Assembly: GCA_963842525.1 (NCBI GenBank)
Contig: CAWJGT010000003.1
Span: 448,001-512,000 of the forward strand
Direction: 5' to 3'
Source: an uncultured Holophagales bacterium
Lineage (GTDB): Bacteria; Acidobacteriota; Thermoanaerobaculia; Multivoradales; UBA5704
DNA length: 64,000 bases
Positions 1 through 64,000 of this stretch are shown one piece after another (the stretch's first letter is position 1; the number at the start of each line of letters is the position of its first letter). The translations under genes were made by a program, and so were the position numbers. The notes under the pieces are model-generated. The model had not been told where the DNA came from. It worked only from the letters and a program-made list of their open reading frames with translations, and did not search any database.

Positions 1-1
1 C

Positions 2-5644
<5,643 letters not shown>

Positions 5645-5653
5645 GGAGCACCG

Positions 5654-11368
<5,715 letters not shown>

Positions 11369-17754: not shown

Positions 17755-17795
17755 CGGCTCCTCCCTCCTGACGTCGTCATGGTCCTTTGCGGCCC

Positions 17796-21524: not shown

Positions 21525-21530
21525 ACCAGG

Positions 21531-21557
21531 TTAGACGGTGGCGAGGCCAAACGGTTA
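21531..21557 (-). promoter_or_regulatory. Putative autoregulatory ECF promoter (AAC-N16-CGTCTAA)
   Basis: The minus strand reads TAAC-cgtttggcctcgccac-CGTCTAA, the classic ECF -35 AAC / -10 CGT spacing, ending 6 nt before ATG 21524. Confidence 0.6.
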
Positions 21558-21587
21558 GGTCGAGCTGCGAGCGGCTCTTTCTCTCTC

Positions 21588-21593
21588 TATAAT
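21588..21593 (+). promoter_or_regulatory. Putative sigma70 -10 box (TATAAT) for the cytochrome c/ASPIC genes
   Basis: Perfect TATAAT in very GC-rich DNA, 9 nt before ATG 21603; no SD and a weak -35. Confidence 0.5.
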
Positions 21594-21602
21594 AAGCGGC
21601 CC

Positions 21603-23888: not shown

Positions 23889-23892
23889 TGCG

Positions 23893-26337: not shown

Positions 26338-26341
<4 letters not shown>
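26144..26341 (+). CDS. Small hypothetical protein translationally coupled to the NRPS
   Basis: 65-aa ORF (TTG start); its TGA overlaps the NRPS ATG (ATGA); contains QRWIDEG; normal amino-acid composition unlike the shadow ORFs. Confidence 0.4.
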
Positions 26342-40857
<14,516 letters not shown>

Positions 40858-46440: not shown

Positions 46441-49400
46441 GCTGGCCGGCCGTATCCGCAGCGAAGCGCTCGCTGCCTACGCGCACCAGGACCTGCCGTT
46501 CGAGAGGCTGGTCGAGGAGCTGTCCCCCGAGCGGAGCCTGGCATACACGCCCCTCTTCCAGGTCATGGTCGTGTTGCAGAACACCCCTGCCGGCGAGCTC
46601 GCGCTGCCCGGTCTCACTCTGGCGCCCCTTGATACGGCCGGCGGGGAGCGCTCCGCCAAGCACGACCTGACTCTGTTTCTCCAGCCGGCAGGGGAGACGC
46701 TCGACGCTGCGTCCGTCTTCCGTCGCGACCTGTTCGACCACCCCACCGTGGAGCGTCTGCTGGGTCACTTCACCAACTTCCTCAAGGCAGCCGTGGCCGA
46801 TCCGGAGAACTCCATCGGCGAGCTGCCTCTGCTCTCGGAGCCCGAAAGCGCGCAGCTCCTCCTGGAGTGGAACGACACCGGTGCGCCGCAGGCAAGGCTC
46901 TGTCTCCATGAGATTTTCGCAGCGCAGGCGGAGCGGACCCCCGCCGCGATCGCGGTGGAGATCGAGGAGGAGGCTCTGACCTATCGCGAGCTGGCGGAGA
47001 GAGCCGGCCGGCTGGCGGACCGTCTGCGCGCGCTCGGGGTCGGGCCGGATGTGCTGGCCGGCATCTGCCTCGAGCGGTCGTTCGACCTGGTGACCGCCCT
47101 GGTCGCTACACTGGCGGCCGGCGGTGCCTATCTGCCCCTCGATCCCGAATATCCACGCGAGCGGCTCGCGCTGCTGCTCGCGGACGCCAGGCCGGCGGTG
47201 GTCCTCACGCGCAGCGATCTGCGCCCTCTCTTCGGGGAGCCGCCATCCGGCGCGCCCTGCGTGCTCTGTGTCGACGAGGAGGGCCTCCCGGTCGCCGCAT
47301 CCCCGATCTCCGCGGTACAGCCCGCAAACCTGGCGTGCCTCCTCTACACCTCGGGATCGACGGGCCGGCCCAAGGGGGTGATGGCCACTCACGCGGGCAT
47401 GGTCAACCGCCTGCTCTGGGCGCAGCGGGTCTATCCCCTGGGCCCGCAGGACCGGGTGCTGCAGAGCGCTTCGTTCAGCTTCGACTTCGCGCTGTGGGAA
47501 ATCTTCGCTCCGTGGCTGGCCGGTGCCCGCGTGGTGCTCGCCCGGCCCGGCGGGCACCGCGACAGCGCCTACCTGGTGGACCTCATCGCGTCGCGCGGCA
47601 TCACGGTGGCGCACTTCATCCCCTCCATGCTGCGGGTCCTCCTGGAGGAGGAGGGTGTCGAGCGCTGCCGCTCGCTGCGCCTGGTCCTCTCGGGCGGCGA
47701 GCCCCTCTCCGTCGAGCTGCGGGAGCGGTTCTTCCGCCGTCTGGGCGCCGAGCTGCGCAACCAGTATGGCCCTACCGAGGCTTCCATCGACGTGAACCAC
47801 TGGCTCTGTCACCCCAGGGAGGGCTCGGGCGCGGTGCCCATCGGCCGCCCCGTCGACAATACGCGCATCCTCCTGCTGGACCGCGGGTTGCGTCCCGTGC
47901 CTGCCGGTGTTCCTGGCGAGCTCTGCATCGGCGGAGTCGCGCTCGCCCGCGGCTATCTGGGCCGTCCCGAGCTGACCGCCGAGCGGTTCGTGCCCGATCC
48001 CTGGTGCCCTGGCGAGCGCCTCTACCGGACGGGCGACGTGGCGCGCTACCGCTCCGATGGAGCCGTCGAATTCCTCGGCCGCCTCGATCATCAGGTCAAG
48101 ATCCGCGGCTTCCGGATCGAGCCGGGAGAGATCGAGGCTGTCCTGGAGTCGCTGGCCGGCGTGCGTGCGGCCGTTTTGGAGGTGCGGGGTGAGGGGCCGT
48201 CTCGACGTCTGGTGGCCTATGTTGTGCCGCAGGAGCCACCAACGGACCTGACACTCGCCGGGCTGCGCGCGGCTCTCCAGGGCCTCCTGCCGGAGTTCAT
48301 GGTCCCGTCCGCCTGGGTGCTGCTGCCCGAGCTGCCGCTCACCCCGAACGGCAAGCTGGACCGTCGTGCTTTGCCGGAGCCCGAGGCGCCGGCCGGCCGG
48401 GAGACCACGGACGCGGTGCCGCGGACGCCGGTCGAGGAGCTCATCGCCGGCATCTGGGCCGACCTCCTGGGCTACGCCCGAGTGGGGATCCACGATGACT
48501 TCTTCGACCTCGGCGGCCATTCGCTGCTGGCGACCCGGGTCGTGTCGCGCATCCGGGCCGCCTGCCGCGTCGAGCTGCCGTTGCGCACCCTGTTCGAGGC
48601 GCCGACCGTGGCCGGGCTCGCGGCGGCGGTGGAAGCCGCGGTGTGGACGGGCAAGACCGCCTCTCCACCCATCCTTCCGCGGCCCCAGAGCGGAGAGGCG
48701 CCGCTCTCCTTTGCCCAGCAGCGGCTCTGGTTCCTGGCGCAGCTCGAGCCGGAGAGCGCGGCCTATAACGTGCCCGCGGCCGTGCGGCTGACCGGCGCTC
48801 TCGACCGGGCCGCCCTTGCGGCCGCCCTCGGTGGGATCGTGGCACGCCACGAAGCGCTGCGGACTTCGTTCCCAACCGTAGCAGGGGAGCCGGTCCAGAA
48901 GGTCGCCCCGGCGGACGGTCCCTTCGAGCTGCCGCTGATCGACCTTGGCGCGCTGTCGGAGCCTGTGGCGGAGGCCCGCCGGTTGGTTGCGGCGGAGGCG
49001 CTGCGCCCGTTCGATGTGACGCGCGGGCCGCTCCTGCGCGGCGCGCTGCTGCGCCTGGAGGCCGCGGAGCACATCGCGCTGTTGTCCATGCACCACATCG
49101 TCTCGGACGCCTGGTCGAGCGGTGTGCTGATCCGCGAGCTGGCCGTCCTCTATGCCGCCTGCCGCGAAGGGCGTCCCTCACCGCTGCCGCCCCTGCCCGT
49201 GCAATACGCCGACTTCGCGGTCTGGCAGCGGAGCTGGATGCAGGGCGAGGCCCTGGAGTCGCTGCTCGCCTTCTGGCGCGAGCGGCTGGCCGGTGCGCCG
49301 GCCGTGCTGGAGCTGCCCGCGGACCGCCCGCGGCCGGCGATCCCCTCCGGCAGAGGTGGCCTGCGCACGGCCCGGATCGACGGCGGGCTCGCCGGCGCTC

Positions 49401-52400
49401 TCGCGCAGCTCGGCCGGCGCGAGGGGCTCACCCTCTTCATGACCCTGCTTGCGGCCTGGGATACGCTGCTCTTCCGGCTGTCCGGACAGACGGACCTGGT
49501 CGTCGGCTCTCCGATCGCCAACCGCAACCGGGTCGAGACCGAAGGGCTCATCGGCTTCTTCACCAACACCCTGGCCCTGCGCGCGCGGCTCGCGCCTGAG
49601 ATGGGCTTCCGGGAGCTGTCCGAGCGGGTGCGGGAGGAAGCTCTCCTGGCCTTCTCGCATCAGGACCTGCCGTTCGAGCGCCTGGTCGAGGAGCTGGCTC
49701 CGGAGCGGTCGCTCGCGCACACGCCGCTGTTCCAGGTGCTGTTCACCCTACAGAACGCGCCCACCGGCAAGCTTGCCCTCGCAGGCCTCACCCTGGCGCC
49801 CCTGGAGCCCGTGGGGCGGACGGCGAAGTTCGATCTCAGCCTCTTCCTGGCCGAGACGGGCAACGGGCTCTCTGCCATGCTCGAATTCGCCGCCGATCTG
49901 TTCGACGCGACCACGGCAAGCCGGATTCTGGAGCGCTTCCGGACGGTGCTCGAAGGGGTGGTGGAGGATCCGGAGGGCAGCCTGGCGGAGCTGCCGCTTC
50001 TGCCCGCGGCCGAGCGCCACCAGATCCTCGCCGAATGGAACGACGTTTCTGTCTGGGGTGGTTCCCCCTGCGTCCACCACCTCGTCGAGGCGCAGGCGCG
50101 GTGGACCCCGGAGGCGATCGCCGTCCTGGCTCCCGACGGCACAGAGCTCTCCTACGGAGACCTCGACCGGCGGGCGGACCGGCTGGCGCGCCGGCTGCGC
50201 GAGCTGGGCATGCGGCCGGACGACCGCGTCGGCGTCTGCCTGGAGCGGAGCTGGGAGGGGGTGGCGGCCCTGCTTGCCGTGCTCAAGGCCGGCGGCTGCT
50301 ATCTGCCGCTTGATCCCGCCTATCCCCAGGAGCGGCTGGCCTTCATGCTGGCCGACGCCGCCGCGCCGGTGATCGTCACCCGCGACCGGCTGGCCGCGGC
50401 GTTGCCGCCGCATGGCGCTCATGTGCTGTCTCTCGATAGCGGCTGGCCCGAGCAGGAGAACGGGAGAGACCTCCCCACGGTCGGCCCCGACCACCTGTCC
50501 TACGTCATCTACACCTCCGGCTCGACGGGCCGGCCCAAGGGGGTCGCCCTGCCACACCGCACGCTGGCCAACCTGATCGCCTGGCAGATCGGCGCCTCGG
50601 CGGCTCCGGCCGGCAGGACCTTGCAGTTTGCCTCGCCGAGCTTCGATGTATCGGTCCAGGAGGTCTTTGCGACCTGGGCCGCGGGTGCCACCCTGGTGCT
50701 GGTGCCCGAGGAGGTCCGCAGCGATGCCGAGGCCTTGCTGCGCCGCCTGCGTGAGGCCCGCGTCGAGCGCCTGTTCCTGCCCTTCGTCGCCCTCCAGCAG
50801 CTCGCCGAGGCCGCAGTCGGGGAGGATGAAGAGCTGTCGCTGCGGGAGGTCGTCACCGCGGGCGAGCAGCTCCAGATCACCCCCGAGGTGCGGGCGCTTT
50901 TCTCGCGCCTGCCCGGCTGCGTGCTGCGCAACCAGTACGGGCCGTCCGAGACCCATGTGGTCACCGAGGCCTCGCTGTGGCCGGGTGGTGTGGAGGAGTG
51001 GCCGGCGCTGCCTCCCATCGGCCGGCCGATCGCTGCCACCGCGGTCCACTTGCTGGACCCGCGCGGCCTGCCGGTGCCGGCCGGCGTGCCAGGGGAGGTC
51101 CACCTGGGCGGCGCCGGGTTGGCGCGCGGCTACCTGGGACAGCCGGAGCTGACCGCGGAGCGGTTCGTCCCCGATCCCTGGGGCCGGGGCGACCGGCTGT
51201 ACCGGACCGGGGACCTGGCGCGCCGGCGTCCGGACGGCGAGGTCGAGTTCCTCGGCCGTATCGATCACCAGGTGAAGATCCGCGGCTTCCGCGTCGAGTT
51301 GGGGGAGATCGAGGCCGCGCTGGCGACGCATCCGGCGGTGCGCGAGGCCGTGGTCGTGGTCCAAGGTCGAGGAGCGTCCAAGCGCCTGGTGGCTTGCATC
51401 CTGCCGGCGGAGGGTGTGCAGGAGCTGCGCGAGCCGCTGCGGGCACACCTGCGGGAGCGGCTGCCGGACTACATGGTGCCGTCGGCCTTCGTGGCAGTGG
51501 AGCGGTTTCCGCTGACGCCGAGCGGCAAGGTGGACCGGCGGGCCCTGGCCGCGAGCGGACCGGAGTTGCAAGAAGCGAACACTGCCGGCGCGGCTCCGCG
51601 CACCCCGGTGGAGGAGGTGCTGGCCGGCATCTTTGGCGAGGTGCTGAGGCTCGCCTCTGTAAGCGTACGAGACAACTTCTTCGATCTGGGCGGCCACTCG
51701 CTGCTGGCCACGCGAGTCGTCTCCCGGATACGCGCCGCCTTCGGCATCGAGCTGCCGTTGCGTGCCCTGTTCGAGACGCCGGCCGTGGAGGGGCTCGCCC
51801 GCACGGTCGAGGCCTCCCTGCGGTCCGGGGTGGCCCCGGCGCCTCCTATCGTCCCCGTGGGACGGGACGGCGATCTGCCGCTGTCCTTCGCCCAGCAGCG
51901 GCTCTGGTTCCTCGACCAGATGGAGCCGGGCAGCCCGGCCTACAACATGCCGGCCGCGGTGCGTCTGAGCGGTCGCCTCTCTCCGGCTGCCCTGGAGGCG
52001 AGCCTGGCCGAGATCGTGGCTCGTCATGAGGTGCTACGCACCCGCTTCGAGCAGGCAGGGGGAGAGCCGGTGCAGCGGATCCTGCCTGCGGGCGGCCGGG
52101 ACCTGCCGCTCGCCGATCTGGCCGGCCTGCCGGAAGGTGCGCGCGAGGCCGAGGCCCACCGTCTGGCGGCGGCGGAAGCCGTTCGGCCGTTCGATCTGGC
52201 CCGCGGGCCGCTGCTGCGCGGCGTGCTGCTGCGGCTGGAGGCCGGGGAGCACGTAGCCCTCCTGACCATGCACCACATCGCTTCGGATGGCTGGTCCATG
52301 GACCTGCTGGTCCGTGAGCTGGCGGCGCTCTATCCGGCCTTCGCGGCCGGCCTCCCATCGCCGCTCCCGCCACTGCCGGTGCAGTACGGCGACTTCGCGG

Positions 52401-55400
52401 TCTGGCAGCGGAGCTGGCTCCAGGGCGAGACCCTGGAGGCGCAGCTCGCCTTCTGGCGGCAGCGGCTGGCCGGCGCTCCACCTGTCCTGGAGTTGCCCAC
52501 CGACCGGCCGCGTTCGGCCGTGCGTAGCGGACGGGGCGCGGTCCTGCCCTTCCGCCTCTCCGGAGAACTCGCCGGCACGCTCGCCGCCTTCTCCCGGCAG
52601 GAGGGCGCGACCCTGTTCATGGTCCTGCTGGCGGCCTTGGAAACCCTGCTCTTCCGCATCACAGGCCTGGACGACCTGGTGGTGGGGGCTCCCATCGCCA
52701 ACCGCAACCGGGCCGAGATCGAGGGCCTGATCGGGTTCTTCGTCAACACGCTGGCCTTACGCGGCCGGCTCTCCCCCCGCGGCTCGTTCCGGGATCTGGC
52801 GGCCCGGACGCGCGACGAGACGCTCGGTGCCTATGCGCACCAGGATCTGCCGTTCGAGCGCCTGGTCGAGGAGCTGGCGCCCCAGCGCGATCTCGGACGC
52901 ACGCCCCTGTTCCAGGTGATGCTCGTGCTCCAGAACGCCCCGGGCGGCGCGCTGGAGCTGCCCGGGCTCACCCTCGCGCCGCTCCCGGTCGAGGCGAGCA
53001 CCGCCAAGCACGACCTCACGCTCGCTCTGGCGGAGAGAGGGGCCAGGCTGACCGGCGCCCTGGAGTACGACCGCGACCTGTTCGACCGGGCGACGGCAGT
53101 GCGGCTGGTGGGATGGCTGGAGACGCTGCTGGAGGGGGCGGCCGCCGATCCCGGCCTGTCCCTGGTCGAGCTGCCTCTGCTGTCCGCCGGCGAGCGGCGC
53201 GAGCTGCTGGAAGACTGGAACCACGCCGCCACGGCCTATCCGCGGGAGGCGACCCTCCGCGAGCTGTTCGAGGCGCAGGCCGACCTCGTCCCGGACGCTG
53301 TCGCCGTGGTCTTCGGCGCGGAGGCCGTGACCTACCGCGAGTTGGACCGGCGCGCGAACCGTCTCGCTCACCGGCTGCGCACCCTGGGCGTCGGCCCGGA
53401 GGTGCTCGTCGCCCTCCTGGCCGAGCGCTCGCTCGAGCTGATCGTCGCCCTGTTGGGCGTCCTCAAGGCCGGAGGCGCCTACGCGCCCCTCGACCCCGCC
53501 TTCCCGCCCGAGCGGCTGGCCCTGCTCCTCGAGGATCTCGGGGCCCCGGTGGTCCTCGCCCAGGAGCATCTCGCCGAGCGCCTGCCGGCGGGTGCCCGGG
53601 CCGTCCGGCTGGTGGAGGTCTGCGCAGGCGGCAGCGAGGAGCGGCTCTCCGTCCCTGTGGCCGCCGCGGGCCTCGCCTATGTGATGTACACCTCCGGCTC
53701 GACCGGGCTCCCCAACGGGGTGGCGGTCGTCCACCGGGCGGTCGTGCGACTCGTGCGGGAGACCGGATATGCGCTCTTCGGGCCTGGGGAGGTCTGGGCT
53801 CAGCTCGCTCCCATGGCCTTCGACGCCTCGACGCTGGAGGTCTGGGGCGCTCTGCTCCACGGCGGCCGCCTGACCGTCCTGCCGCCCGGAGCCCTGTCGC
53901 TTGGTGAGCTGCGGCACGTGCTCGCAACGTACGAGGTCACTTCTCTCTGGCTGACCGCGGGTCTGTTCCACCAGATGGCCGAGGAGGGCCTGACCGGGCT
54001 CGGCGCCGTACGCCAGCTCCTCGCCGGTGGTGACGTGCTCTCGCCCGAGCGCGTGCGCAGGGCCCTGGCGTCCCTGCCCGGCTGCCGCCTGATCAACGGC
54101 TACGGCCCCACGGAAAACACCACCTTCACCTGCTGCCACGCGATGAGCCGGCCGGACGAGGTGGTCTCGCCGGTGCCGCTGGGCCGGCCCATCGCCAACA
54201 CACGGGTCTGGCTGCTCGACGCCGAGCTGAATCCGGTGCCGGTGGGAGTGGCCGGAGAGCTCTATGCCGGCGGCGACGGCCTAGCGCGGGGTTACTTGAA
54301 CCGGCCGGCATTGACCGCGGAGCGGTTCGTCCCGGACCTCCATAGCGGCGAGCCCGGAGGACGGTTGTACCGGACGCGGGACCTGGCGCGCTGGCGGGCG
54401 GACGGGACCGTGGAGTTTCTCGGCCGGCTCGACCAGCAGGTCAAGCTGCGCGGGTTCCGGGTGGAGCCGGGCGAGGTGGAGGCGGCGCTGGCCGCGCTTC
54501 CCGCGGTGCACGAGGCGGCAGTGGTGGTGCAGGGCACAGGGGCGGACCGGCGCCTGGCGGCGTTCGTGGTCGGGGAGGTGGACCGCGCCGAGCTGCGCCG
54601 CCATCTCGAGCCGCGCCTGCCGGCCTGGATGGTGCCGTCGGCCTTCGTGGTCCTGGAAGCGCTGCCGCTGACGCCCAACGGCAAGGTGGACCGCCGCGCC
54701 CTGGCGGCTTTGGAGACGGCCGTGGAACGCGCCGCGGACCTGGTGCTGCCACGCACACCGATGGAGGAGCTGCTCTCCGGGATGTGGGCCGAGGTGCTGA
54801 GGCTCCAGGCCGTCGGCCGCGACGACGATTTCTTCGCCCTCGGCGGCCACTCGCTGCTGGCCACGCAGCTTGTCTCGCGCCTGCGCTCGCTACTCGGAGT
54901 GGAGATGCCGCTGCGCACCCTCTTCGAGCACCCGACCCTCGGCGGGCTCGCGGCGTGGCTGGAGGGAGAGCGCCAGGGCACCCTATCCGCCGAGCCTGTC
55001 CTGCCCGTGCCCCGCGACCGCGACCTGCCCCTGTCCTTCGCCCAGCAGCGCCTCTGGTTCCTCGATCAGCTCGAGCCCGGGAGCTCGGCCTACAACATCC
55101 CCTCTGCTCTGCGTCTCACCGGCGCGCTCAACCGGGAAGCTCTGGCCGCCAGTCTCGACGAGGTGGTGGCGCGCCATGAAACACTGCGCACCACCTTCGG
55201 CTTTGCGGGAAGGGAACCGGTCCAGCGCATCGCTCCGCATGGCTCCCGGTCCCTGCCGTTGATCGATCTGGCCGGCCTGCCAGAGGCCCGCCAAGAGGGG
55301 GAGGCCCGGCGCCTGGCCGACGAAGAGGCGCGCTCCCCGTTCGACCTGTCGCGCGGCTCTCTGATCCGCAGCGCGCTCCTGCGTCTGGCGGACCAGGAAC

Positions 55401-56407
55401 ATCTCCTGCTTCTGACGGTGCATCACATCGTCTGCGACGGATGGTCCAGCGGAATCCTGGTCCGCGAGATGGCGGCGCTCTACGCGGCCTTCGCGACCGG
55501 CCGCCCCTCTCCCCTGCCACCGCTGCGGGTGCAGTACGCCGACTTCGCCGCCTGGCAGCGGGACTGGATGCGCGGCGCGGCGCTGGAGGCCCAGGTCTCG
55601 TACTGGCGGGAACGCTTGGCGGGCGCACCTCACCTGCTGGAGCTGCCCGTCGACCGGGAGCGGCCGGCCGTCCAGAGCTTCCGCGGCGGCTGCGAGACCT
55701 TCACCTTCTCGCGGGAGCTGGCCACGTCTCTCGAGAGACTCGCCCGCAGTGAAGGCGTCACGATGTTCATGGCCCTGCTCGCGGGCTTCAAGGGGTTGCT
55801 GCACCTCCGCAGCGGAGTGACCGACGTCGTGATCGGAACCAACGTGGCCAACCGGAGCCGGCCGGAGATCGAGCCGCTGATCGGTTTTTTCGTCAACATG
55901 ATTGTGCTGCGGACCGACCTCTCCGGGGACCCGACGTTCCGCGAGTTGCTCGCGCGGGTCCGGGAGGTCGCCCTGGGGGCCTACTCCCACCAAGACCTGC
56001 CGTTCGAGCGGCTGGTCGAGATCTTGCGCCCGGAGAGGAGCCTGAGCCGTCAGCCGCTCTTCCAGGCCGTGTTCTCGCTGCAGAACGCACCGGCCGGAGA
56101 GGCCGTCGATCTCGCGGGCCTGGATCTCCGCTCGATGGCGATCGAAAGGAAGTCCGTGAAATACGACCTGGTGGTGAACATGTGGCACGCCGAAGGGCGG
56201 CTCGCGGGCTCCATGGAATACAGCCGGGACCTCTTCGAGGCCGAGTCGGTGCGGCGATTGTGGCAGCAGCTCGGGCGCCTCCTCGAGAGCGCCGTGGCAG
56301 CGCCCGACACCCGGCTGCGGAGCCTCAACATCCTGTCGCAGCGGGAAAGAGAGCTGCTCAGGGTCGAGGTGCGGGTGGAGGAGCTGGCCGAGGAGTTCTC
56401 TTTTTAA
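45905..56407 (+). CDS. Giant NRPS segment 4: C7-A(X)-T-C-A(Pro-like)-T-C-A(Val)-T-C(terminal, no A)
   Basis: Begins at the HHIVSDGWS of C7; three A-T pairs; ends with a full C domain (HHIVCDGWS) and a tail VEELAEEFSF; no TE or R domain. Confidence 0.93.
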   Translation: MHHIVSDGWSSSVLIRELGALYPAMSVGGAGQPSPLPELPVQYADFAVWQRGWLQGEALESRLRYWRERLAGAPPVLELPADRPRPAVAGVRGGLCRRELGADLTARLQAFGRRQGTTLFMTLLAAFKALLGRSTRQEDLLVGTPVANRNRAEVEDLIGFFVNTLVLRTDLSGDPTFLELAGRIRSEALAAYAHQDLPFERLVEELSPERSLAYTPLFQVMVVLQNTPAGELALPGLTLAPLDTAGGERSAKHDLTLFLQPAGETLDAASVFRRDLFDHPTVERLLGHFTNFLKAAVADPENSIGELPLLSEPESAQLLLEWNDTGAPQARLCLHEIFAAQAERTPAAIAVEIEEEALTYRELAERAGRLADRLRALGVGPDVLAGICLERSFDLVTALVATLAAGGAYLPLDPEYPRERLALLLADARPAVVLTRSDLRPLFGEPPSGAPCVLCVDEEGLPVAASPISAVQPANLACLLYTSGSTGRPKGVMATHAGMVNRLLWAQRVYPLGPQDRVLQSASFSFDFALWEIFAPWLAGARVVLARPGGHRDSAYLVDLIASRGITVAHFIPSMLRVLLEEEGVERCRSLRLVLSGGEPLSVELRERFFRRLGAELRNQYGPTEASIDVNHWLCHPREGSGAVPIGRPVDNTRILLLDRGLRPVPAGVPGELCIGGVALARGYLGRPELTAERFVPDPWCPGERLYRTGDVARYRSDGAVEFLGRLDHQVKIRGFRIEPGEIEAVLESLAGVRAAVLEVRGEGPSRRLVAYVVPQEPPTDLTLAGLRAALQGLLPEFMVPSAWVLLPELPLTPNGKLDRRALPEPEAPAGRETTDAVPRTPVEELIAGIWADLLGYARVGIHDDFFDLGGHSLLATRVVSRIRAACRVELPLRTLFEAPTVAGLAAAVEAAVWTGKTASPPILPRPQSGEAPLSFAQQRLWFLAQLEPESAAYNVPAAVRLTGALDRAALAAALGGIVARHEALRTSFPTVAGEPVQKVAPADGPFELPLIDLGALSEPVAEARRLVAAEALRPFDVTRGPLLRGALLRLEAAEHIALLSMHHIVSDAWSSGVLIRELAVLYAACREGRPSPLPPLPVQYADFAVWQRSWMQGEALESLLAFWRERLAGAPAVLELPADRPRPAIPSGRGGLRTARIDGGLAGALAQLGRREGLTLFMTLLAAWDTLLFRLSGQTDLVVGSPIANRNRVETEGLIGFFTNTLALRARLAPEMGFRELSERVREEALLAFSHQDLPFERLVEELAPERSLAHTPLFQVLFTLQNAPTGKLALAGLTLAPLEPVGRTAKFDLSLFLAETGNGLSAMLEFAADLFDATTASRILERFRTVLEGVVEDPEGSLAELPLLPAAERHQILAEWNDVSVWGGSPCVHHLVEAQARWTPEAIAVLAPDGTELSYGDLDRRADRLARRLRELGMRPDDRVGVCLERSWEGVAALLAVLKAGGCYLPLDPAYPQERLAFMLADAAAPVIVTRDRLAAALPPHGAHVLSLDSGWPEQENGRDLPTVGPDHLSYVIYTSGSTGRPKGVALPHRTLANLIAWQIGASAAPAGRTLQFASPSFDVSVQEVFATWAAGATLVLVPEEVRSDAEALLRRLREARVERLFLPFVALQQLAEAAVGEDEELSLREVVTAGEQLQITPEVRALFSRLPGCVLRNQYGPSETHVVTEASLWPGGVEEWPALPPIGRPIAATAVHLLDPRGLPVPAGVPGEVHLGGAGLARGYLGQPELTAERFVPDPWGRGDRLYRTGDLARRRPDGEVEFLGRIDHQVKIRGFRVELGEIEAALATHPAVREAVVVVQGRGASKRLVACILPAEGVQELREPLRAHLRERLPDYMVPSAFVAVERFPLTPSGKVDRRALAASGPELQEANTAGAAPRTPVEEVLAGIFGEVLRLASVSVRDNFFDLGGHSLLATRVVSRIRAAFGIELPLRALFETPAVEGLARTVEASLRSGVAPAPPIVPVGRDGDLPLSFAQQRLWFLDQMEPGSPAYNMPAAVRLSGRLSPAALEASLAEIVARHEVLRTRFEQAGGEPVQRILPAGGRDLPLADLAGLPEGAREAEAHRLAAAEAVRPFDLARGPLLRGVLLRLEAGEHVALLTMHHIASDGWSMDLLVRELAALYPAFAAGLPSPLPPLPVQYGDFAVWQRSWLQGETLEAQLAFWRQRLAGAPPVLELPTDRPRSAVRSGRGAVLPFRLSGELAGTLAAFSRQEGATLFMVLLAALETLLFRITGLDDLVVGAPIANRNRAEIEGLIGFFVNTLALRGRLSPRGSFRDLAARTRDETLGAYAHQDLPFERLVEELAPQRDLGRTPLFQVMLVLQNAPGGALELPGLTLAPLPVEASTAKHDLTLALAERGARLTGALEYDRDLFDRATAVRLVGWLETLLEGAAADPGLSLVELPLLSAGERRELLEDWNHAATAYPREATLRELFEAQADLVPDAVAVVFGAEAVTYRELDRRANRLAHRLRTLGVGPEVLVALLAERSLELIVALLGVLKAGGAYAPLDPAFPPERLALLLEDLGAPVVLAQEHLAERLPAGARAVRLVEVCAGGSEERLSVPVAAAGLAYVMYTSGSTGLPNGVAVVHRAVVRLVRETGYALFGPGEVWAQLAPMAFDASTLEVWGALLHGGRLTVLPPGALSLGELRHVLATYEVTSLWLTAGLFHQMAEEGLTGLGAVRQLLAGGDVLSPERVRRALASLPGCRLINGYGPTENTTFTCCHAMSRPDEVVSPVPLGRPIANTRVWLLDAELNPVPVGVAGELYAGGDGLARGYLNRPALTAERFVPDLHSGEPGGRLYRTRDLARWRADGTVEFLGRLDQQVKLRGFRVEPGEVEAALAALPAVHEAAVVVQGTGADRRLAAFVVGEVDRAELRRHLEPRLPAWMVPSAFVVLEALPLTPNGKVDRRALAALETAVERAADLVLPRTPMEELLSGMWAEVLRLQAVGRDDDFFALGGHSLLATQLVSRLRSLLGVEMPLRTLFEHPTLGGLAAWLEGERQGTLSAEPVLPVPRDRDLPLSFAQQRLWFLDQLEPGSSAYNIPSALRLTGALNREALAASLDEVVARHETLRTTFGFAGREPVQRIAPHGSRSLPLIDLAGLPEARQEGEARRLADEEARSPFDLSRGSLIRSALLRLADQEHLLLLTVHHIVCDGWSSGILVREMAALYAAFATGRPSPLPPLRVQYADFAAWQRDWMRGAALEAQVSYWRERLAGAPHLLELPVDRERPAVQSFRGGCETFTFSRELATSLERLARSEGVTMFMALLAGFKGLLHLRSGVTDVVIGTNVANRSRPEIEPLIGFFVNMIVLRTDLSGDPTFRELLARVREVALGAYSHQDLPFERLVEILRPERSLSRQPLFQAVFSLQNAPAGEAVDLAGLDLRSMAIERKSVKYDLVVNMWHAEGRLAGSMEYSRDLFEAESVRRLWQQLGRLLESAVAAPDTRLRSLNILSQRERELLRVEVRVEELAEEFSF

Positions 56408-56431
56408 AGGGATCAGCGAAAGGAAGCGGCA

Positions 56432-58063
56432 ATGTCCAAGAACGGGCGAATCGATTGCGTCACGATTGGCTACTACGAGCCGAGATTCGATCAATACGAG
56501 AAGCAGATCCGCGCCTTCGGCGAGGACTCCGAAGCCTACCGGGACCTGAAGTTCAGCTTCGTGGACCTCGGTGACAGGAAGCTGACGTATGCGGAGCTCC
56601 TGAGCCATGGGCACCGGTTGGCGACGGGCGGCGCGGCGGACGCGAAGGACGAGTTCATGTCCGGCGACATCCCGAACCTCGCGGCCGCCTACCTCACACA
56701 TTTCCTGCGCCGCCGGGGGATGAACGCCAGGTACATCAACCTGTTCCTGCATGAAAAGGAAAAACTCAGAGCGTATCTCGAGGAGGACCCGCTCTGTGTG
56801 GCGATCACCACGACCTTCTACAGCCTGAACTTCCCGGTCATCGAAATGGTGCGCGAGATCAGAGCGCACAACGCCGAGACCAAGATCGTGGTCGGCGGGC
56901 CTCTGGTAGCCAATCATCACCGCAGATATCCCCCCGACCAGCTCCTGATCGCGCTCGACGACATGGAGGCGGACATCTACGTGATCGAATCGCAGGGGGA
57001 GCTCACGCTGTTCCAGATCGCGCAGTGCCTGCGGGAAGGCGGCGACCTGTCCCGGGTGCCTAACATCGTCTACCGCGACGAGAGCGGGAAGCTGCAGAGG
57101 ACGGAGATCGCGCACGAGACGAATTCGCTCGACGACGATTCCGTCGACTGGCGCCTGTTCGGCGAGGAGGAGCTCGGCGCCACCCTGCAGACCAGGACGG
57201 CGCGGAGCTGTGCTTTCAGTTGCGCCTTCTGCGCCTATCCAACGCGGGCCGGCAAGCTCACCCTCGCCAGCCTGGAGACGATCGAGAGAGAGCTCGACGC
57301 CATGCGCGACGTGGGCGGAATCCGCAACGTCGTATTCATCGACGATACCTTCAACGTCCCCCTGCCACGTTTCAAGGACATCTGCCGGTTGATGATCCGG
57401 AAGCAGTACGGCTTCAACTGGTTCTCCTACTTCCGGTGCAGCAACTCCGACGAAGAGGCGATCGAGCTGATGGCACGAAGCGGTTGCAAGGGGGTTTTCC
57501 TGGGCATCGAATCCGGCTCGCCGGCGATTCTCAAGAACATGGACAAGCACGCGGCGACCGAACAATACCGGAAGGGCATCACTCTGTTGCGGCAGCATGG
57601 GATCCTGACCTTCGGCTCGTTCATCACCGGCTTTCCGGGCGAGTCGGCGGAGACGGTGCGGGAGACCGTTGACTTCATCAAAGAGACGCACCTCGACTAC
57701 TACCGATCCCAGATCTGGTACTGCGAGCCCGGAACGCCGATCTACCACCGCAAAGAGCAGTACGGCATCGAGGGGGAAGGGTTCAGTTGGAGCCACGACA
57801 CGATGGACAGCCTGGAGGCGATGGATCACATCGATCGCGCCTTCCTGGAGATCCGCGAGTCGCGTTGGCTCCCCCAGTGGTCTTTCGACTTCTGGATCAT
57901 CCCTTATCTGATGGGCAAGGGGCTGTCGCTGGAACGCTTCGCGAGATTCACCGACGAGGCGAACGGCATGCTGGCCCTCGAGATCGCCTCCGTTCCCGGC
58001 CATCAGAAGAGCCGGTTGCAGCGGGAGCGCCTGGGAAGGATCGTAGAGATCCTCAAGAACTGA
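56432..58063 (+). CDS. Cobalamin-dependent (class B) radical SAM methyltransferase, PhpK-like
   Basis: CAFSCAFC (CxxxCxxC); N-terminal B12-binding features VAITTTF, IVVGGP, ESQGE; FIDDTFNVP, FLGIESG, SFITGFPGE; 543 aa. The N-terminus DCVTIGY..AYRDL recalls the PhpK/BcpD family (from memory, not searched). Confidence 0.9.
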   Translation: MSKNGRIDCVTIGYYEPRFDQYEKQIRAFGEDSEAYRDLKFSFVDLGDRKLTYAELLSHGHRLATGGAADAKDEFMSGDIPNLAAAYLTHFLRRRGMNARYINLFLHEKEKLRAYLEEDPLCVAITTTFYSLNFPVIEMVREIRAHNAETKIVVGGPLVANHHRRYPPDQLLIALDDMEADIYVIESQGELTLFQIAQCLREGGDLSRVPNIVYRDESGKLQRTEIAHETNSLDDDSVDWRLFGEEELGATLQTRTARSCAFSCAFCAYPTRAGKLTLASLETIERELDAMRDVGGIRNVVFIDDTFNVPLPRFKDICRLMIRKQYGFNWFSYFRCSNSDEEAIELMARSGCKGVFLGIESGSPAILKNMDKHAATEQYRKGITLLRQHGILTFGSFITGFPGESAETVRETVDFIKETHLDYYRSQIWYCEPGTPIYHRKEQYGIEGEGFSWSHDTMDSLEAMDHIDRAFLEIRESRWLPQWSFDFWIIPYLMGKGLSLERFARFTDEANGMLALEIASVPGHQKSRLQRERLGRIVEILKN

Positions 58064-58086
58064 CGGTCGAAATGGATGGATGTCAA

Positions 58087-61000
58087 ATGATCCGAGATGA
58101 AGTCCAGGAGAAGCACGAGGCCGGCTCCCACGAGGTGTGGTTGGAGAAGGAGGCGGCCTACTGGTCGCAGAAGCTGGCCGGCCCGCCCGAGGCCGTGGGG
58201 CTCCCTCTCGACAGGCCTCGCCTTTTGGTCTCGGGTTTCCGACAGGCCCGCGTAGAGATCCCCGTCGAGGAGGAGGTCCAGAGGGGCCTGCTGCAGCTCT
58301 GCAAGGGCAACGACACGCTGCTCCTGGTCGCCTTCGTGGCCGTAGTCAAGGCCTGGCTGCACAGGTCCACGGGCGCCGAGGACATCATTGTCGGTACGAC
58401 GATCCACCGGCGCTACGCGGAAGCTCGCCTCGCTCAACAAGATCTTGTCCCTGCGCGATCGCGTGACCGGCGCCTCGATGCTCAAGGATCTCCTGCTCCA
58501 GGTCAAGGAAACGGTTTCGGAAGCGTACGCGCACCAGAAGCTTCCCTTCGACCGGCTGCGCAAGCTCCTGGCAGCCGCGCTGCCGGATCCTGTCTCGCCC
58601 CTGTTCCGGGTCGCCGTCCTGATGGAGCAGATCAACGATGTCGCGAGCCTCGAGCGCCTGCTCCCCGATGTGACGTGGATCGTGAGCCGGGCCGACGAAC
58701 AGATCCACTGCCGGATCGAGTACAACGCGGAGCTCCTGCAGGCAACTTCCGTCCAAGCGTTCGGCGAGGCCTGCATCCGGATCGCATCGGCACTGGTCGC
58801 GGACCCAGGAGCCCGGGTCGGGGAGCTTGCGCTCCTGGCGCCGGAGCGGGAACGCGAGCTGCTGCACGATTTCAATGCGAGCGGTCGGGAGTATCCCCGG
58901 GACTGCACGATCCACGAGCTCTTCGAGCGCGAGGCGGGGCGCTCCGGTGAGAAGACGGCCGTCCTCTGTGGCTCCTTGGAGCTCTCCTACCAGGAGCTGA
59001 ACCGCCGGGCCAACCGCCTCGCCCATCACCTGCGACGGCTGGGCGTCGGAGCGGGTGCGCGGGTGGGAATTCTGCTCGACCACTCTCCCGAGGCGGTGGT
59101 CGCAATCCTCGCGGTGCTCAAGGCTGGAGGGGCTTACGTCCCCTTCGACCCCTCCTCGCCAGCAGAGCGCTTGGCCTTCATGCTGGCGGACGCAGAGATC
59201 GCCGTGCTGCTGACGCAGGACCGGCTGGCGCAGCGGTGCAACGCCGGCGAGGCCGTGGTCCTGCGCCTCGACGCGGACCAGCAGCTCTTCGCCCAGGAGA
59301 ACACCGAAAAACTGCCGGCCGGCGCCATGCCACAGGACGTGGCCTACATCATCTACACCTCGGGATCGACCGGGCGGCCCAAGGGGGTCCTGATCTCGCA
59401 TTCGTCTCTGGTGAACTATATCTGGTGGTCGAAGGATGTCTACCTGCGAGGAGAAACGCTGGCTTTTCCCTTGTACTCCTCACTCGCTTTCGACCTGACG
59501 ATCACATCGTTTTTCACCCCTCTGGTCACAGGCAACAGACTTGTCATCCATCGCCCCGAGGAAGGCAGGACATCGGTTCTAGGTGTCTTGCAGGACGATC
59601 GGGTAGAGATTCTAAAGCTGACTCCCAGCCACCTCGCTCTGATCCAGGACCGCGACAACCGGGGCTCGAGCATCCGCCGGCTGATCGTCGGCGGTGAGGC
59701 CCTGGAGTCTGGATTGGCGAGACGGGTGTACGAGAGCTTCGGGGGCGAGGTCGAGATCTTCAACGAGTATGGTCCCACCGAGGCCACGGTGGGCTGCATG
59801 ATCCACCGGTTCGATCCTGAGGCGCAGGACTGTGCGTTCGTGCCCATCGGCCGGCCGGCGGCCAATACGCGGATCTACCTCCTCGGCAAGGATCTCAAGC
59901 CTGTGGGGATGAACGCGCCGGGAGAGCTGTACATCTCCGGGGACGGGGTCGCGCAGGGATACTGGCGGCGCGACGACCTCACCGCCGAAAGATTTCTCGC
60001 AGACCCCTTCCACGCGGGCGGCCGGATGTACAAGACCGGCGACCTGGCCCGCTGGCTGCCGGAGGGCGTGATCGACTTCCTCGGGCGCAAGGACGGGCAG
60101 ATCAAGTTCCTCGGGCATCGGATCGAGCTCGACGAGATCCGCTGGGCGTTGGGCCAGCATCGAAAAGTGCGCGACAGCGTGGTCTCGGCCACCGAGGACG
60201 AGAACGGCAATCGGGTTCTCCTGGCCTACTACGTGGCCCGCGAGGCGCTGGACGTCGCGGAGCTGCGGAGTTTTCTTTCGAGCTACATCCCCGAGGAGAC
60301 GATTCCAAGCTTCTTCGTTCACATGAAGCGGCTGCCGCTGACGCTCAACGGCAAGTTGAATCATCAGGCTCTGCCGTCCCTGAGCGAGGCGAAAAAGCAG
60401 CTTCGGCAGGAGATCGTGGCTCCCCGCAATGCCACGGAGCTGCGGGTCGCGGAGATCTTCCGGCAGGTTCTCGGCCTCCAGCAGGTCGGCATCCACGAGA
60501 GCTTTTTCACCCTGGGCGGCCATTCGCTGCTGGCCACGCAGGTGACATCGCGCGTGCGCGACGGCTTCCACCTGGAGCTGCCGTTACGGGCGTTGTTCGA
60601 GACTCCGACCGTCGCGGATCTTGCGGCGAGGATCGACGCGGCCGGCAACTCCGGGCATGAGCTCAAACTGCCGCCTCTGGTGCGCTGTCCGCGTGACGGC
60701 GACCTGCCGCTCTCCTTCGCCCAACAGAGGCTCTGGTTCATCCATCAACTGGAGCCCGAAAGCCCGGCCTACAACATCCCCGCCGCGGTGCGCCTGACCG
60801 GCAGACTGGACCAGGCAGCGCTGCTGGCCGCTCTGGGCGAGGTGGTGGCCCGCCATGAGACGCTGCGCACCTCCTTCGGCGAGGTCGGAGGGAAGCCGGT
60901 GCAGCGCATCGCGCCGCCGGCGCAGCTCGCCGCGCCGCTCCTCGATCTGACGGACCTGCCGACCGCGCAGCGCGAGGCGGAGACCCGTCGCCTGGTGACG

Positions 61001-64000
61001 GAGGAGGAGCGCCATCCCTTCGATCTGGCGCGCGGCCCCCTCGTGCGGGTCGCTCTGCTGCGCCTGGCTTGCGAGGACCATGTCCTGCTGTTGACCCTGC
61101 ACCACATCGTTTCCGACGGCTGGTCGACGGGGGTGCTGATCCGCGAGTTTGGAGCGCTCTATCCGGCGTTTCACGAGGGCCGGCCCTCGCCGTTGCCGCT
61201 GCTTCCGGTCCAGTACGCCGATTTTGCTCTCTGGCAACAGACATGGATGTCGGGAGAGGCGCTGACAGCCCAGCTCTCCTACTGGTTGGAGCGTCTGGAA
61301 GGCATCCCGGCCGAGATCGAGCTGCCTACGGACCACCCTCGGCTTGCCGTCCCCAGCGGGCGCGGCGGTTCCCAATTGCTCCGGCTGCCCAGGGGTCTGT
61401 CGGATGCGCTGGCCAAGCTCGGCGCGCGGCACGGTGCCACGCTGTTCATGACTCTGCTTGCGGCCTGGAAGGTGCTGCTCTCCCGCTACAGCGGCCAGAC
61501 CGATGTCGTGGTGGGCTCTCCAATCGCCAACCGGAACCGGACCGAGTTGGAATCCCTGATCGGTTTCTTCGTCAATACCCTCGCGTTGCGCACCGATCTG
61601 TCGGGCGGCCCCGACTTCCGCGATCTGGTCGGCAAGGTCCGCGAGGTGACGCTTTCGGCCTATGCACACCAGGATCTGCCGTTCGAGAGGCTGGTCGAGG
61701 AGATGGCGCCCGAGCGGGTCCTGTCCCGCACGCCGATCTTCCAGGTCGTGTTTGCGCTCCAGAACGCTCCCGCGAGCACCCTCGACCTGCCCGGTCTCAC
61801 CCTGTCCCGGCTCGTTCTCGAAGGGGGCACGGCCAAGTTCAACCTGATGCTCTCGCTCGCCGAGAGCGAGGCAGGGCTGGCTGGCAGCCTGGAGTTCAGC
61901 CGCGATCTGTTCGACCCGGCGACCGTGGCCTGTCTGGCCGGCCACTTCCAGACGCTGCTCGCGGCCATCGCCCTGGATCCTGCACGACGGACCGAAGATT
62001 TGCCGCTGCTTTCTCCGGAGGAGCAGGGCCAGTTGCTGGTGGAGTGGAACCGGACGGCCGGGGACTATCCGCGCGAGGCGACCTTGCCCGAGCTGTTCCA
62101 GGACTGGGCGAGCCGGACGCCGGAGGCCGTTGCGGTGGTGTTCGGGGACGAGGAGCTCACCTACCGGGAGCTGAGCCGCCGGGCCCGCCGTGTGGCGCGC
62201 CGGCTGCGCACGCACGGAGTCGGACCGGAGGTGCTCGTCGGGCTCTGCGCCGACCGCGGTGCGGATCTGGTGGCGGGCATGCTGGGCGTTCTCGCGGCCG
62301 GCGGTGCCTATGTTCCGCTCGATCCGACCTATCCTCGGGAGCGGCTGGCCTTCATGCTGGAAGACGCCGCGACTCCGGTCGTGCTCGTGCAGGGATCGTG
62401 GGCCGAGAGGCTGCCCGCCTCGCGGGCGGAGTTGGTGATCCTGGAGGAGGCCGTCCGGGACGAGTCGATGGAGGAGGCAAGGGAGCGGGCCCTGCCGGTC
62501 GCCTGGGCCGAGAGCCTAGCCTATGTAATGTACACCTCGGGCTCGACGGGGAGGCCGAAGGGGGTGGCGGTATCTCATCGCGCCATCGTCCGCCTGGTCC
62601 GCGACACGGATTACACCCAGGTGGAGCCTTCGGACCGGATGGCGCAGGTCGCGAGCTCCTCGTTCGACGCGGCGACGTTCGAAATCTGGGGAGCTCTCCT
62701 GAACGGCGCCTGCCTGGTGGGCATCGAATCGCCGGTGGCCCTCTCACCCGGCGCCCTGGCCACCTGCATCGCGGAGCAAAGGATCAGCGCTCTATTCCTG
62801 ACCACGGCGCTCTTCCAGCAGATTGCCCGGGAGGCTCCAGAGGCATTCCGGCCGTTGCGCCATCTGCTCTTCGGTGGTGAGGTGGTGGATCCGCGATGGG
62901 TGCGCGAGGTGCTGAAAAAGGGCGCTCCCGAGCGGCTCCTCCACGTCTACGGCCCGACCGAGAACACGACCTTCTCGTCCTGGTACTTGGTTGAGCAGGT
63001 CTCGGAACGCGCGACGTCTGTGCCGATCGGTCGCCCAATCCGGAACACTCGGGCATATGTGCTGGACGGGCATCTGCGACCCGTCCCCGTCGGGGTGAGC
63101 GGGGACTTGTACCTCGGCGGAGACGGGCTGGCCCGCGACTACCACAACCGGCCAGACCTGACAGCGGAGCGCTTTGTGCCTGACCCGTCGGGCTACGAGC
63201 CGGGAGGGCGGCTCTACCAGACCGGCGACCGGGCGCGCCATCTCGTGGACGGCACGATCGATTTCCTGGGCCGGCTGGACCACCAAGTGAAGCTACGGGG
63301 GTTCCGGATTGAGCTGGGGGATGTTGAAGCGGCCTTAGCCGAGCTTCCCGGGGTCCGGCAGGCCCTGGTCGTGGTTCGGCCAGGAGCGGACGGGAGCATC
63401 GATAAGCGGCTGGTCGCCTATGTCGCGGGGGAGGCTGAGAGCGCAGAGCTGAGGCGGCATCTCGAAACCAAGCTGCCGAGCTTCATGATCCCCTCTGCCT
63501 TCGTCGTGCTGCCGTCGTTCCCCCTGACCTCGAACGGCAAGGTGGACCGGCAGTCCCTTCCGGAGCCGGAGTGGGGGAGAGCGGAGGCAGAGGTCGACTC
63601 GAAGGCGCCGTGCACACCGGTGGAGGAGATGCTGGCCGGGATCTTTGCAGAGGTGCTGGGTCTCAGCAGAGTGGGTGTGCGCGAAAGCTTCTTCGATCTC
63701 GGTGGACATTCGCTGCTGGCCACGCAGGTCGTGTCCCGGATACGCGCCGCCTTCGGCATTGAGCTGCCGCTGCGGGTGCTGTTCGAGGCTCCGACCGTGG
63801 AGGGTCTCGCTCCGGCCGTCGAGGCCGCGATGCGGTCCGGGATGGCCCCGGTGCCTCCGATCGTCCCAATGGAGAGGGACGGCGAGCTGCCGCTCTCCTT
63901 TGCCCAGCAGAGGCTCTGGTTCATCCATCAACTGGAGCCCGAAAGCCCGGCCTACAACATCCCGGTTGCGGTGCGCCTGACCGGCAGGCTCGACCGGAGG
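58087..64000 (+). CDS. NRPS, 3'-truncated: half-C (Interface-like)-A(Asn)-T-C-A(Ile/Val)-T-C; +1 frameshift at about 58422
   Basis: Starts at the YWSQKLAG..LPLDRPR part of a C domain with no HHxxxDG lobe. After the extra A in GCGGAAGCTC, the frame from 58424 stays open to the window end (AYAHQKLPFD, FDLTIT/LKLTP/NEYGPTEATVG Asn-type pocket, GGHSLL, HHIVSDGWS, pocket DAFFLGVTF). Confidence 0.9.

Follow-up and report, generated by a model that had tools for sequence, protein, structure and literature searches.

A cobalamin-dependent radical SAM enzyme at a split Asn module as a candidate for on-line C-methylation in nonribosomal peptide synthesis

Ribosomal peptides are well-known targets of radical C-methylation at unactivated carbons, and the known members of the PhpK/BcpD family of radical S-adenosylmethionine (SAM) enzymes that depend on cobalamin (B12) act on an acidic amino-acid analogue in the pathway of a peptide made by nonribosomal peptide synthetases (NRPSs). 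Carrier-bound amino acids are the substrates of CmlA-type diiron beta-hydroxylases, the X domain of glycopeptide NRPSs recruits the Oxy P450s, and the Interface domain, which Reitz and co-workers are said to have described in PNAS in 2019, reportedly goes together with Fe/alpha-ketoglutarate-dependent Asp and His beta-hydroxylases in siderophore NRPSs. The antiSMASH 8 paper cites Reitz et al. 2019 on the Interface domain (PMC12230676). DscE, a cobalamin-dependent radical SAM enzyme of the discodermin NRPS cluster, methylates free discodermin D at Val5 in vitro (PMC12858407). Here, we analysed a stretch of 64,000 nucleotides from an uncultured Holophagales bacterium (assembly GCA_963842525.1, contig CAWJGT010000003.1, positions 448,001 to 512,000; hereafter the window), in which a PhpK-like radical SAM gene is placed between an NRPS that ends in a complete condensation (C) domain and an NRPS that starts with only the C-terminal lobe of such a domain, here called half-C, followed by the adenylation (A) and thiolation (T) domains of a putative Asn module. 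We propose, with a probability of about 0.5, that the enzyme methylates a carbon of the carrier-bound Asn in trans, with the half-C as adaptor. Probably, the layout is the mark of a novel route by which amino acids are methylated during assembly. A search of the main texts of open-access papers found no B12-dependent or PhpK-like radical SAM enzyme linked to an Interface domain or a truncated C domain, and no C-methylated Asn in an NRPS product.

The radical SAM gene and the split module

The upstream NRPS open reading frame (ORF) carries its last Condensation match (Pfam positions 4-455 of 456) at residues 3040-3485, at the extreme end of the protein, and hidden Markov models (HMMs) built from the window's own domains place this terminal C domain at 55025-56353. 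Both the full-length match and the HHxxxDG motif, present in this placement as well, are those of a canonical condensation domain, and no A or T domain lies between it and the stop codon at 56405-56407. The radical SAM gene begins 24 bp behind this stop, and only 23 bp separate its end from the next NRPS. Its product combines a B12-binding domain (PF02310, 39.6 bits, cut-off 32.1) with a Radical_SAM core (PF04055, 88.3 bits) in which the cluster motif CxxxCxxC reads CAFSCAFC, i.e. the class B architecture. Moreover, it exceeds the cut-off of 600 bits of TIGR04479, 'PhpK family radical SAM P-methyltransferase', over nearly the whole model (residues 7-511, model positions 1-501 of 504; Table 1); the second-best family reached 108 bits. 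The related enzymes of the sister loci described below score 637-720 bits with the same model. In a PDB search at E <= 0.001, the protein matched only AprD4 (64 bits), TsrM (57 bits), 9ccb, RimO-type proteins and OxsB.

Family searches of the non-NRPS and NRPS ORFs of the window detected no phosphonate-pathway family. The single PF13714 match of the genome is located on another contig (C14), and the same family is matched in 11 of 14 control genomes. A phosphonate reading was rejected on these grounds. Given the missing phosphonate context and an Asn/Asp (Asx) module as neighbour, the methyl acceptor is most likely a carbon. Horizontal transfer, which a drop in guanine-plus-cytosine (GC) content at 56-60 kb might indicate, was also rejected: third-position GC amounts to 0.862 in the radical SAM gene and 0.886 in the NRPS.

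The half-C, approximately 255 residues long, matches the Condensation profile at positions 190-281 and, after a change of frame, onwards to about position 441. It is devoid of the N-lobe and of HHxxxDG, while the alignment displays C5-C7-like motifs. The code of the following A domain is read here as Asn-like, and the split module is succeeded by an ordinary C-A-T-C series. The frame change corresponds to one extra A at about 58421 compared with an uninterrupted paralogous module in the same genome, which is 92% identical on the DNA level (L072:4591-7200; L, G and C numbers are our handles for loci, genomes and contigs). Logan contigs of four soil-metagenome runs were aligned to window positions 57900-58900, and neither of the two run X1 contigs that extend across position 58421 has the extra base (4 and 22 other differences in 252 nt). 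Run X1 may be the source sample or contain a close strain, and its more divergent contig may represent the paralogue. Further C domains of the window assembly are split between frames at about 40260, 43470 and 45860. Because the base is missing in the X1 contigs and other C domains are frame-split in the same assembly, the break at 58421 is most likely an assembly error, a strain-specific pseudogene being the possible alternative. The multiple splits of the giant NRPS look like indel errors of the assembly as well. The ORFs 26338-40857, 40296-43562, 43582-46440 and 45905-56407 probably form a single giant gene that starts at 26338, with the upstream ORF as its 3' part. C and A domains are likewise frame-split at L072:17426 and, in L074, at about 9745, 10271, 11679 and 16249.

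The original prediction had described a giant NRPS that closes in a complete C domain without A or T domain, a cobalamin-dependent radical SAM enzyme as next gene, and a second NRPS that opens with half a C domain lacking HHxxxDG before an Asn-type A domain and a T domain. It had also presumed a frameshift inside the half-C and suggested scoring the enzyme against TIGR04479. All these features were recovered, with the Asn assignment as a tentative one.

Table 1. Features of the split assembly line in the window.
Feature	Position	Strand	Remarks
Upstream NRPS ORF (C-A-T x3, terminal C)	45905..56407	+	3500 aa; 3 A, 3 T, 4 Condensation matches
Terminal complete C domain	55022..56359	+	motif HHIVCDG intact
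Cobalamin-dependent radical SAM enzyme, PhpK family	56432..58063	+	543 aa; TIGR04479 635.3 bits
C-lobe-only half-C domain, N-terminus of next NRPS	58087..58864	+	Condensation profile about 187-441
Adenylation domain	58922..60184	+	nine-residue code DLTKIGEVG (extracted by alignment)
Thiolation (carrier) domain of split module	60434..60637	+	GGHSL motif
Next canonical full-length C domain	60704..62026	+	assembly line goes on past window

Recurrence of the layout and the link to Asn/Asp modules

Relatives of the radical SAM enzyme were collected by a combined pattern and tblastn scan with one genome per species, which gave 62 loci. L062, at 24% identity, was dropped, having no phmmer hit at 1e-20. 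The remaining 61 loci belong mostly to metagenome-assembled genomes (MAGs) of Acidobacteriota (Pyrinomonadaceae, Blastocatellia, Thermoanaerobaculia) with identities of 57-75%, while three are myxobacterial with 59% identity (Archangium minus Cbm 6, Vitiosangium sp. GDMCC 1.1324 and Myxococcus xanthus AM003). A protein database search with the enzyme resulted in 2599 matches among 8000 scored candidates, many of which bear source names such as PhpK-family or 'p-methyltransferase'. Scanning the loci in six frames with our own C, A and T HMMs revealed NRPS domains near the radical SAM gene in 60 of the 61 loci, the exception being L040.

Three layouts recur among these loci. In type I, found in 22 of the 61 loci and in the window, a full C domain is followed after about 100 bp by the radical SAM gene and after another 100 bp or so by half-C, A and T domains, with half-C matches that begin at positions 179-214 of the C profile. 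Its presence in 22 of 61 related loci makes this order far more frequent than expected by chance. The C domain preceding the enzyme retains the HH pair in 19 of 21 cases, and the other two read NHAILDG with the second His preserved. Type II, represented by 16 loci, has a full-length C-like domain within about 250 bp after the radical SAM gene, and in 14 of these domains the HH pair is replaced (PALCADA, PSLCADG, SPLCADA and similar). In eight loci with such a His-less domain the upstream NRPS is about 1.1 kb longer beyond its last C domain, and where this extension was checked with Pfam it proved to be a fused TauD domain (L017, 153 bits; L073, 174.5 bits). The three myxobacterial loci possess the His-less domain and no TauD extension. 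In type III, comprising approximately 10 loci, the radical SAM gene is found 2.4-6 kb away from the NRPS genes.

Some neighbours of these genes deserve mention in their own right. In the type III locus L005 a carbamoyltransferase gene (NodU/CmcH-type) adjoins the radical SAM region, together with ORFs of 725-733 residues (L005:5472-7649, 7696-9879 and 11646-13847) that have no Pfam match at E <= 0.01 apart from a weak GDSL-like one. Around the radical SAM gene of L001, two genes resembling Asp/Orn carbamoyltransferases (L001:3751-4782 and 9152-10192) and, nearby, an ornithine cyclodeaminase-like gene were observed. In Archangium minus, a second B12-binding/radical SAM gene (L039:18675-20846, minus strand, 722 aa) and an M28 peptidase gene adjoin the cluster.

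The A domains that flank the enzyme mostly have Asn- or Asp-like codes. Among the half-C loci with a complete downstream A domain, 12 of 14 read D[LF]TK[IV]GEV[GA], as does the window, and two later finds (L076, L083) carry DLTKIGEVG as well. DLTKVGHVG is read in all 13 complete A domains behind a His-less full-length domain, and also in L073. The last upstream module of six type III loci again reads DLTKIGEVG. In the reference Asp modules that follow TauD, introduced below, the seventh code position is H, not E. These codes tie the radical SAM family to probable Asx modules and represent the strongest pointer to its substrate.

The half-C, the Interface domain and other partners

Reference Interface domains were selected by architecture from a tblastn search with the TauD domain of L017 against plasmid records. 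This led to three loci (L090, L091 and L092), among them a Janthinobacterium lividum siderophore cluster with fhuF, N-hydroxylase, acetyltransferase and exporter genes; the other two are from Variovorax and Leptolyngbya. In each of them, one NRPS ends with C-TauD, and the next one starts with a C-like domain of 384-467 residues that lacks the HH pair (PALVADR, NPLAADR and PALCADA) and precedes an Asp-coded A domain. A FastTree phylogeny was calculated on the C-lobe columns of 204 domains, in which the window's half-C was represented by its 92% identical paralogue L072:4591. The references fall into one group of 27 members with the His-less domains that follow the radical SAM genes (support 0.966). 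Apart from these, the 33 half-C domains make up a clade of their own (support 0.999), which is sister (0.88) to the bulk of canonical C domains; an earlier tree of C domains without the references placed them in the same way. Furthermore, the half-C profile matched ordinary elongation C domains first when searched against the PDB (LCL-type TycC 2jgp, 160 bits). The PDB entries 8z0q, 8z0r and 8z0s, 'Special condensation domain in NRPS', gave 110.6 bits with this profile.

As a member of the C superfamily in front of an A domain the half-C lacks HHxxxDG in a trivial sense, the motif region being absent from it; with about 255 against 384-467 residues it is not a full-length two-lobed C fold, and it does not group with the domains that follow beta-hydroxylases. 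From the tree grouping and the PDB matches, we conclude at the level of sequence that the half-C is not an Interface domain but another element, a clean C-lobe, and that the type II loci have the genuine Interface-type domain. On this point the original prediction is not supported, as it had taken the half-C of the window for an Interface-like domain. Its general outline is nevertheless in agreement with our data regarding the TIGR04479 membership, the NRPS embedding in 60 of 61 loci, the C / radical SAM / split-module order that its proposed neighbourhood survey was expected to find again (type I), and the pairing with Asn/Asp-type A domains. The suggested likeness to the slot of the hydroxylases also holds in the sister loci, where the radical SAM family sits within the order C-TauD, His-less C-like domain and A(Asp).

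When the search was turned round and made with the half-C as query (an alignment of eight rows and one peptide pattern), radical SAM genes were present in 17 of 17 loci at 35% identity or more, six contigs being new; as the single pattern came from sequences linked to radical SAM genes, this result is biased towards that clade. A phylum-wide search of 201 genomes with the half-C profile, in which 13 candidates were scored per genome (484 in G000, the genome of the window), retrieved only G000 at 1e-60 and is uninformative on co-occurrence. Other tailoring genes also precede members of the half-C clade. In L052, a CmlA-like diiron beta-hydroxylase gene (L052:15945-17693; CmlA_N plus metallo-beta-lactamase fold, 583 aa, 277 bits) is situated between a C-terminated NRPS and half-C-A(DASTIAAVC)-T, with a half-C of the same clade. 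In a Nostoc sp. MAG (L086:4202-10724), a stand-alone C domain (466 aa), a Cupin_8/JmjC hydroxylase gene and a class III aminotransferase gene precede half-C-A(DIWEMVADD)-T; its half-C also belongs to the clade, and no radical SAM gene was found within 8 kb.

Fusions of the enzyme to a C-lobe occur in a sister clade of the radical SAM enzymes (42-44% identity), which was found in genomes that belong to the same family as the window's. The fusion in L085:10189-12651 comprises 821 residues with TIGR04479 at residues 18-519 (719.7 bits) and Condensation positions 189-446 at residues 564-800, and similar proteins are encoded in L066/L097 (861 aa), L095 and L096. The gene after the fusion begins with half-C-A-T in L066/L097, L085 and L095. 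Where readable, the downstream codes of the fused clade are non-Asx (DAWQYGVVD in L084, DIRNFGVDV in L095); L093 has a long radical SAM frame without C-lobe match and the code DSCTIAAVC. The fused C-lobe is highly divergent and forms a long branch in the tree. Just 5' of the fusion gene, L085:7959-10220 and L084 encode a protein of 753 residues with half-C plus full C domain, in a tandem half-C arrangement. Considering the conserved clade, the radical SAM linkage, the other tailoring genes and the fusions, we argue on comparative grounds that the half-C may well be more than a remnant.

The genome of the window (9.95 Mb, 34 contigs), in which the assembly line continues for at least 40 kb past the window, contains further copies of these elements. 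The paralogous module mentioned above (G000:C3:516591-519200) again has the order half-C-A(DLTKIGEVG)-T, and its DNA is 92% identical to positions 58087-60700 of the window. There, an NRPS ending in a C domain (stop at L072:4500) is followed after 91 bp by the half-C with no enzyme gene between, such that one radical SAM enzyme could serve two Asn modules. On another contig (L073:8280-11623, C9), a radical SAM paralogue with 60% identity lies between NRPS-C-TauD and a His-less C-like domain with A(DLTKVGHVG); its third-position GC is 0.714 compared with 0.935 in the flanking NRPS, and from this difference it may have been acquired. A third paralogue (L098, 42% identity) follows another C-terminated NRPS, and same-genus genomes contained no homologue of the radical SAM enzyme above 44% identity. 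Within the window, positions 1-15374 harbour a separate NRPS cluster, and 15361-25608 encode a MacB/FtsX permease (minus strand), HEAT/TPR proteins, a TPR-multihaem cytochrome protein and an FG-GAP/ASPIC protein.

Proposed mechanism, alternatives and known systems

In the mechanism that we propose, the radical SAM enzyme would be a class B, i.e. methylcobalamin-using, methylase with the Asn of the split module as its dedicated substrate. The A domain of this module would load Asn onto its T domain, the enzyme would act in trans on the T-bound Asn, most plausibly by methylating the beta carbon, as this is the only unactivated sp3 carbon in the side chain of Asn, and the intact terminal C domain of the upstream protein would join the modified residue to the peptide. 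Devoid of the catalytic N-lobe, the half-C could serve as an adaptor which keeps the A-T pair folded and presents the loaded carrier; alternatively, it might provide a docking site for the enzyme or for the upstream C domain. That the enzyme would act on the carrier-bound residue, and not on free Asn or a completed peptide, is suggested because the Asx module is the exact point at which the assembly line is split, with a non-catalytic C-like domain, because sister loci place the enzyme in the beta-hydroxylase/Interface architecture, and because the half-C also pairs with a CmlA-type enzyme and covalent fusions exist in the sister clade. Co-folding of the radical SAM enzyme with the half-C scored 0.00 in both runs, which were made without controls, and weighs neither way.

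Several observations speak against such a carrier-bound reaction. In the tree of the radical SAM enzymes, half-C and Interface contexts are intermixed, hence there is no signal of co-diversification. The close relatives L024 and L025 have the non-Asx code DAFWLGGTF after the half-C, an Asn-like module being next in L024. The closest homologue (L001, 75% identity) is found after the A-T-thioesterase end of its cluster and not beside a half-C; another contig of its genome carries a C / half-C-A(DLTKIGEVG) junction, which scores 278 bits, the other C domains of this genome reaching no more than 166. Moreover, the roughly 10 type III loci imply that adjacency of radical SAM and NRPS genes is not required, and half-C junctions that lack an enzyme gene, detailed below, count against the model too. 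The position after the thioesterase and the kilobase distances would fit a methylation after assembly, in which the enzyme acts on an Asx or another residue of the released or full-length peptide and the gene position merely reflects operon packing. The P-methylation by PhpK is likewise placed late in its pathway. DscE methylates a released peptide (PMC12858407). Nevertheless, we regard this alternative as unlikely, since it leaves unexplained why the line is split exactly at the Asx module with a non-catalytic C-like domain in 36 of 61 loci, and it accounts neither for the radical SAM-C-lobe fusions nor for the pairing of the half-C with hydroxylase genes, one of them CmlA-like. Less probable again would be a role in precursor supply, where free Asn, Asp or a small precursor is methylated and the A domain then selects the methylated amino acid. 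The two carbamoyltransferase-like genes and the ornithine cyclodeaminase-like gene of L001 represent enzymes of small amino-acid metabolites, carbamoyltransferase and unknown genes surround the type III enzyme, and PhpK reportedly accepts a free N-acetyl amino acid in vitro. However, the codes DLTKIGEVG and DLTKVGHVG occur in ordinary Asn/Asp modules of the same loci and of the reference siderophore loci too, so nothing points to a binding pocket reshaped for a larger amino acid, and the C-lobe fusions and the split-module layout would stay unexplained.

Another explanation concerns the half-C itself, which might only be a junction or scaffold. It would then be a remaining C-lobe with a stabilising effect on the A domain, or else a dock for the upstream C domain, and would be unrelated to an enzyme that finds its substrate unaided. 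Enzyme-less C / half-C-A-T junctions in the genome of the window (L072:4500/4591) and in G041 (L100) imply that the half-C could be mainly an element between proteins, and the proximity of its profile to ordinary LCL-type C domains fits with this idea. Such a limited role is, in our view, at least as improbable as precursor supply, when set against the single conserved clade of 33 members, against the fact that all half-C instances were found in loci with a radical SAM gene or another tailoring oxygenase (in G041 the radical SAM gene is on another contig), and against the C-lobe borne by the radical SAM enzyme itself in the sister clade. Finally, the enzyme could be a true P-methyltransferase or a non-methylating B12 radical SAM enzyme with a substrate other than Asx. 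The TIGR04479 'P-methyltransferase' cut-off is exceeded, class B enzymes also catalyse reactions other than methylation (OxsB, BchE, AprD4), and these types appear among the weaker matches. We see very little chance for this, because TIGR04479 is classed as a 'subfamily' model, an Asx module is what consistently neighbours the enzyme, and the window is free of phosphonate genes, with the only PF13714 match on another contig and this family present in most control genomes.

Returning to on-line methylation, a broader version appears possible, although more tentative than for the window alone. The half-C would then be a previously undescribed adaptor that recruits trans-acting radical enzymes, and PhpK-family enzymes, free or fused to a C-lobe, would use either the half-C or a true Interface domain for C-methylation on the assembly line. 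The products might be beta-methyl-Asn here, beta-hydroxy-beta-methyl-Asp together with TauD, and, for the fused clade, Gln-like or aromatic residues bearing a methyl group. In any case, a large and phylogenetically widespread set of NRPS clusters, mostly from uncultured soil Acidobacteriota and a few cultured myxobacteria, has a PhpK-type radical SAM enzyme wired to Asn/Asp modules via non-catalytic C-like domains. If it acts on the carrier, the principle of a C-like recruiter known from X and Interface domains would reach radical SAM chemistry, and a new half-size adaptor domain, at present annotated as truncated C domain, would be recognised. Furthermore, methylated Asx residues could be predicted by a genome-mining rule, and the NCBIfam name 'P-methyltransferase' would probably be wrong for most members of the family from soil genomes. 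With the fused radical SAM-C-lobe proteins and the myxobacterial carriers in culture, the question lends itself to a direct test.

The locus can be compared with several described systems. The half-C, as proposed here, would resemble the X domain as a catalytically dead C-like domain that brings a trans-acting enzyme to a carrier-bound substrate; in this analogy, the X domain differs in being full length, in its position in the last module and in recruiting P450s. The enzyme of the window exceeds the TIGR04479 cut-off of the PhpK/BcpD family over the whole model and has the same B12-binding plus radical SAM architecture, whereas its gene is found without phosphonate context next to an Asn/Asp module. 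DscE, the tested nonribosomal B12 radical SAM case, is also of class B and encoded in an NRPS cluster, and it adds a methyl group to an sp3 carbon in the side chain of a nonribosomal peptide, but on the released peptide and at Val (PMC12858407). CmlA belongs to another enzyme superfamily with another reaction and is absent from the window, yet the CmlA-like gene of L052 occupies the same slot (C / enzyme / half-C-A-T) next to a half-C of the same clade. Regarding the Interface systems, the window differs by its C-lobe-only domain (about 255 instead of 384-467 residues), which belongs to another clade, and by a B12 radical SAM enzyme in place of the TauD-type hydroxylase. Both share, however, the order of an active terminal C domain, a tailoring enzyme and then a non-catalytic C-superfamily domain with A and T domains for Asx, and in 14 sister loci the radical SAM gene stands directly before a His-less domain that groups with the post-TauD references.

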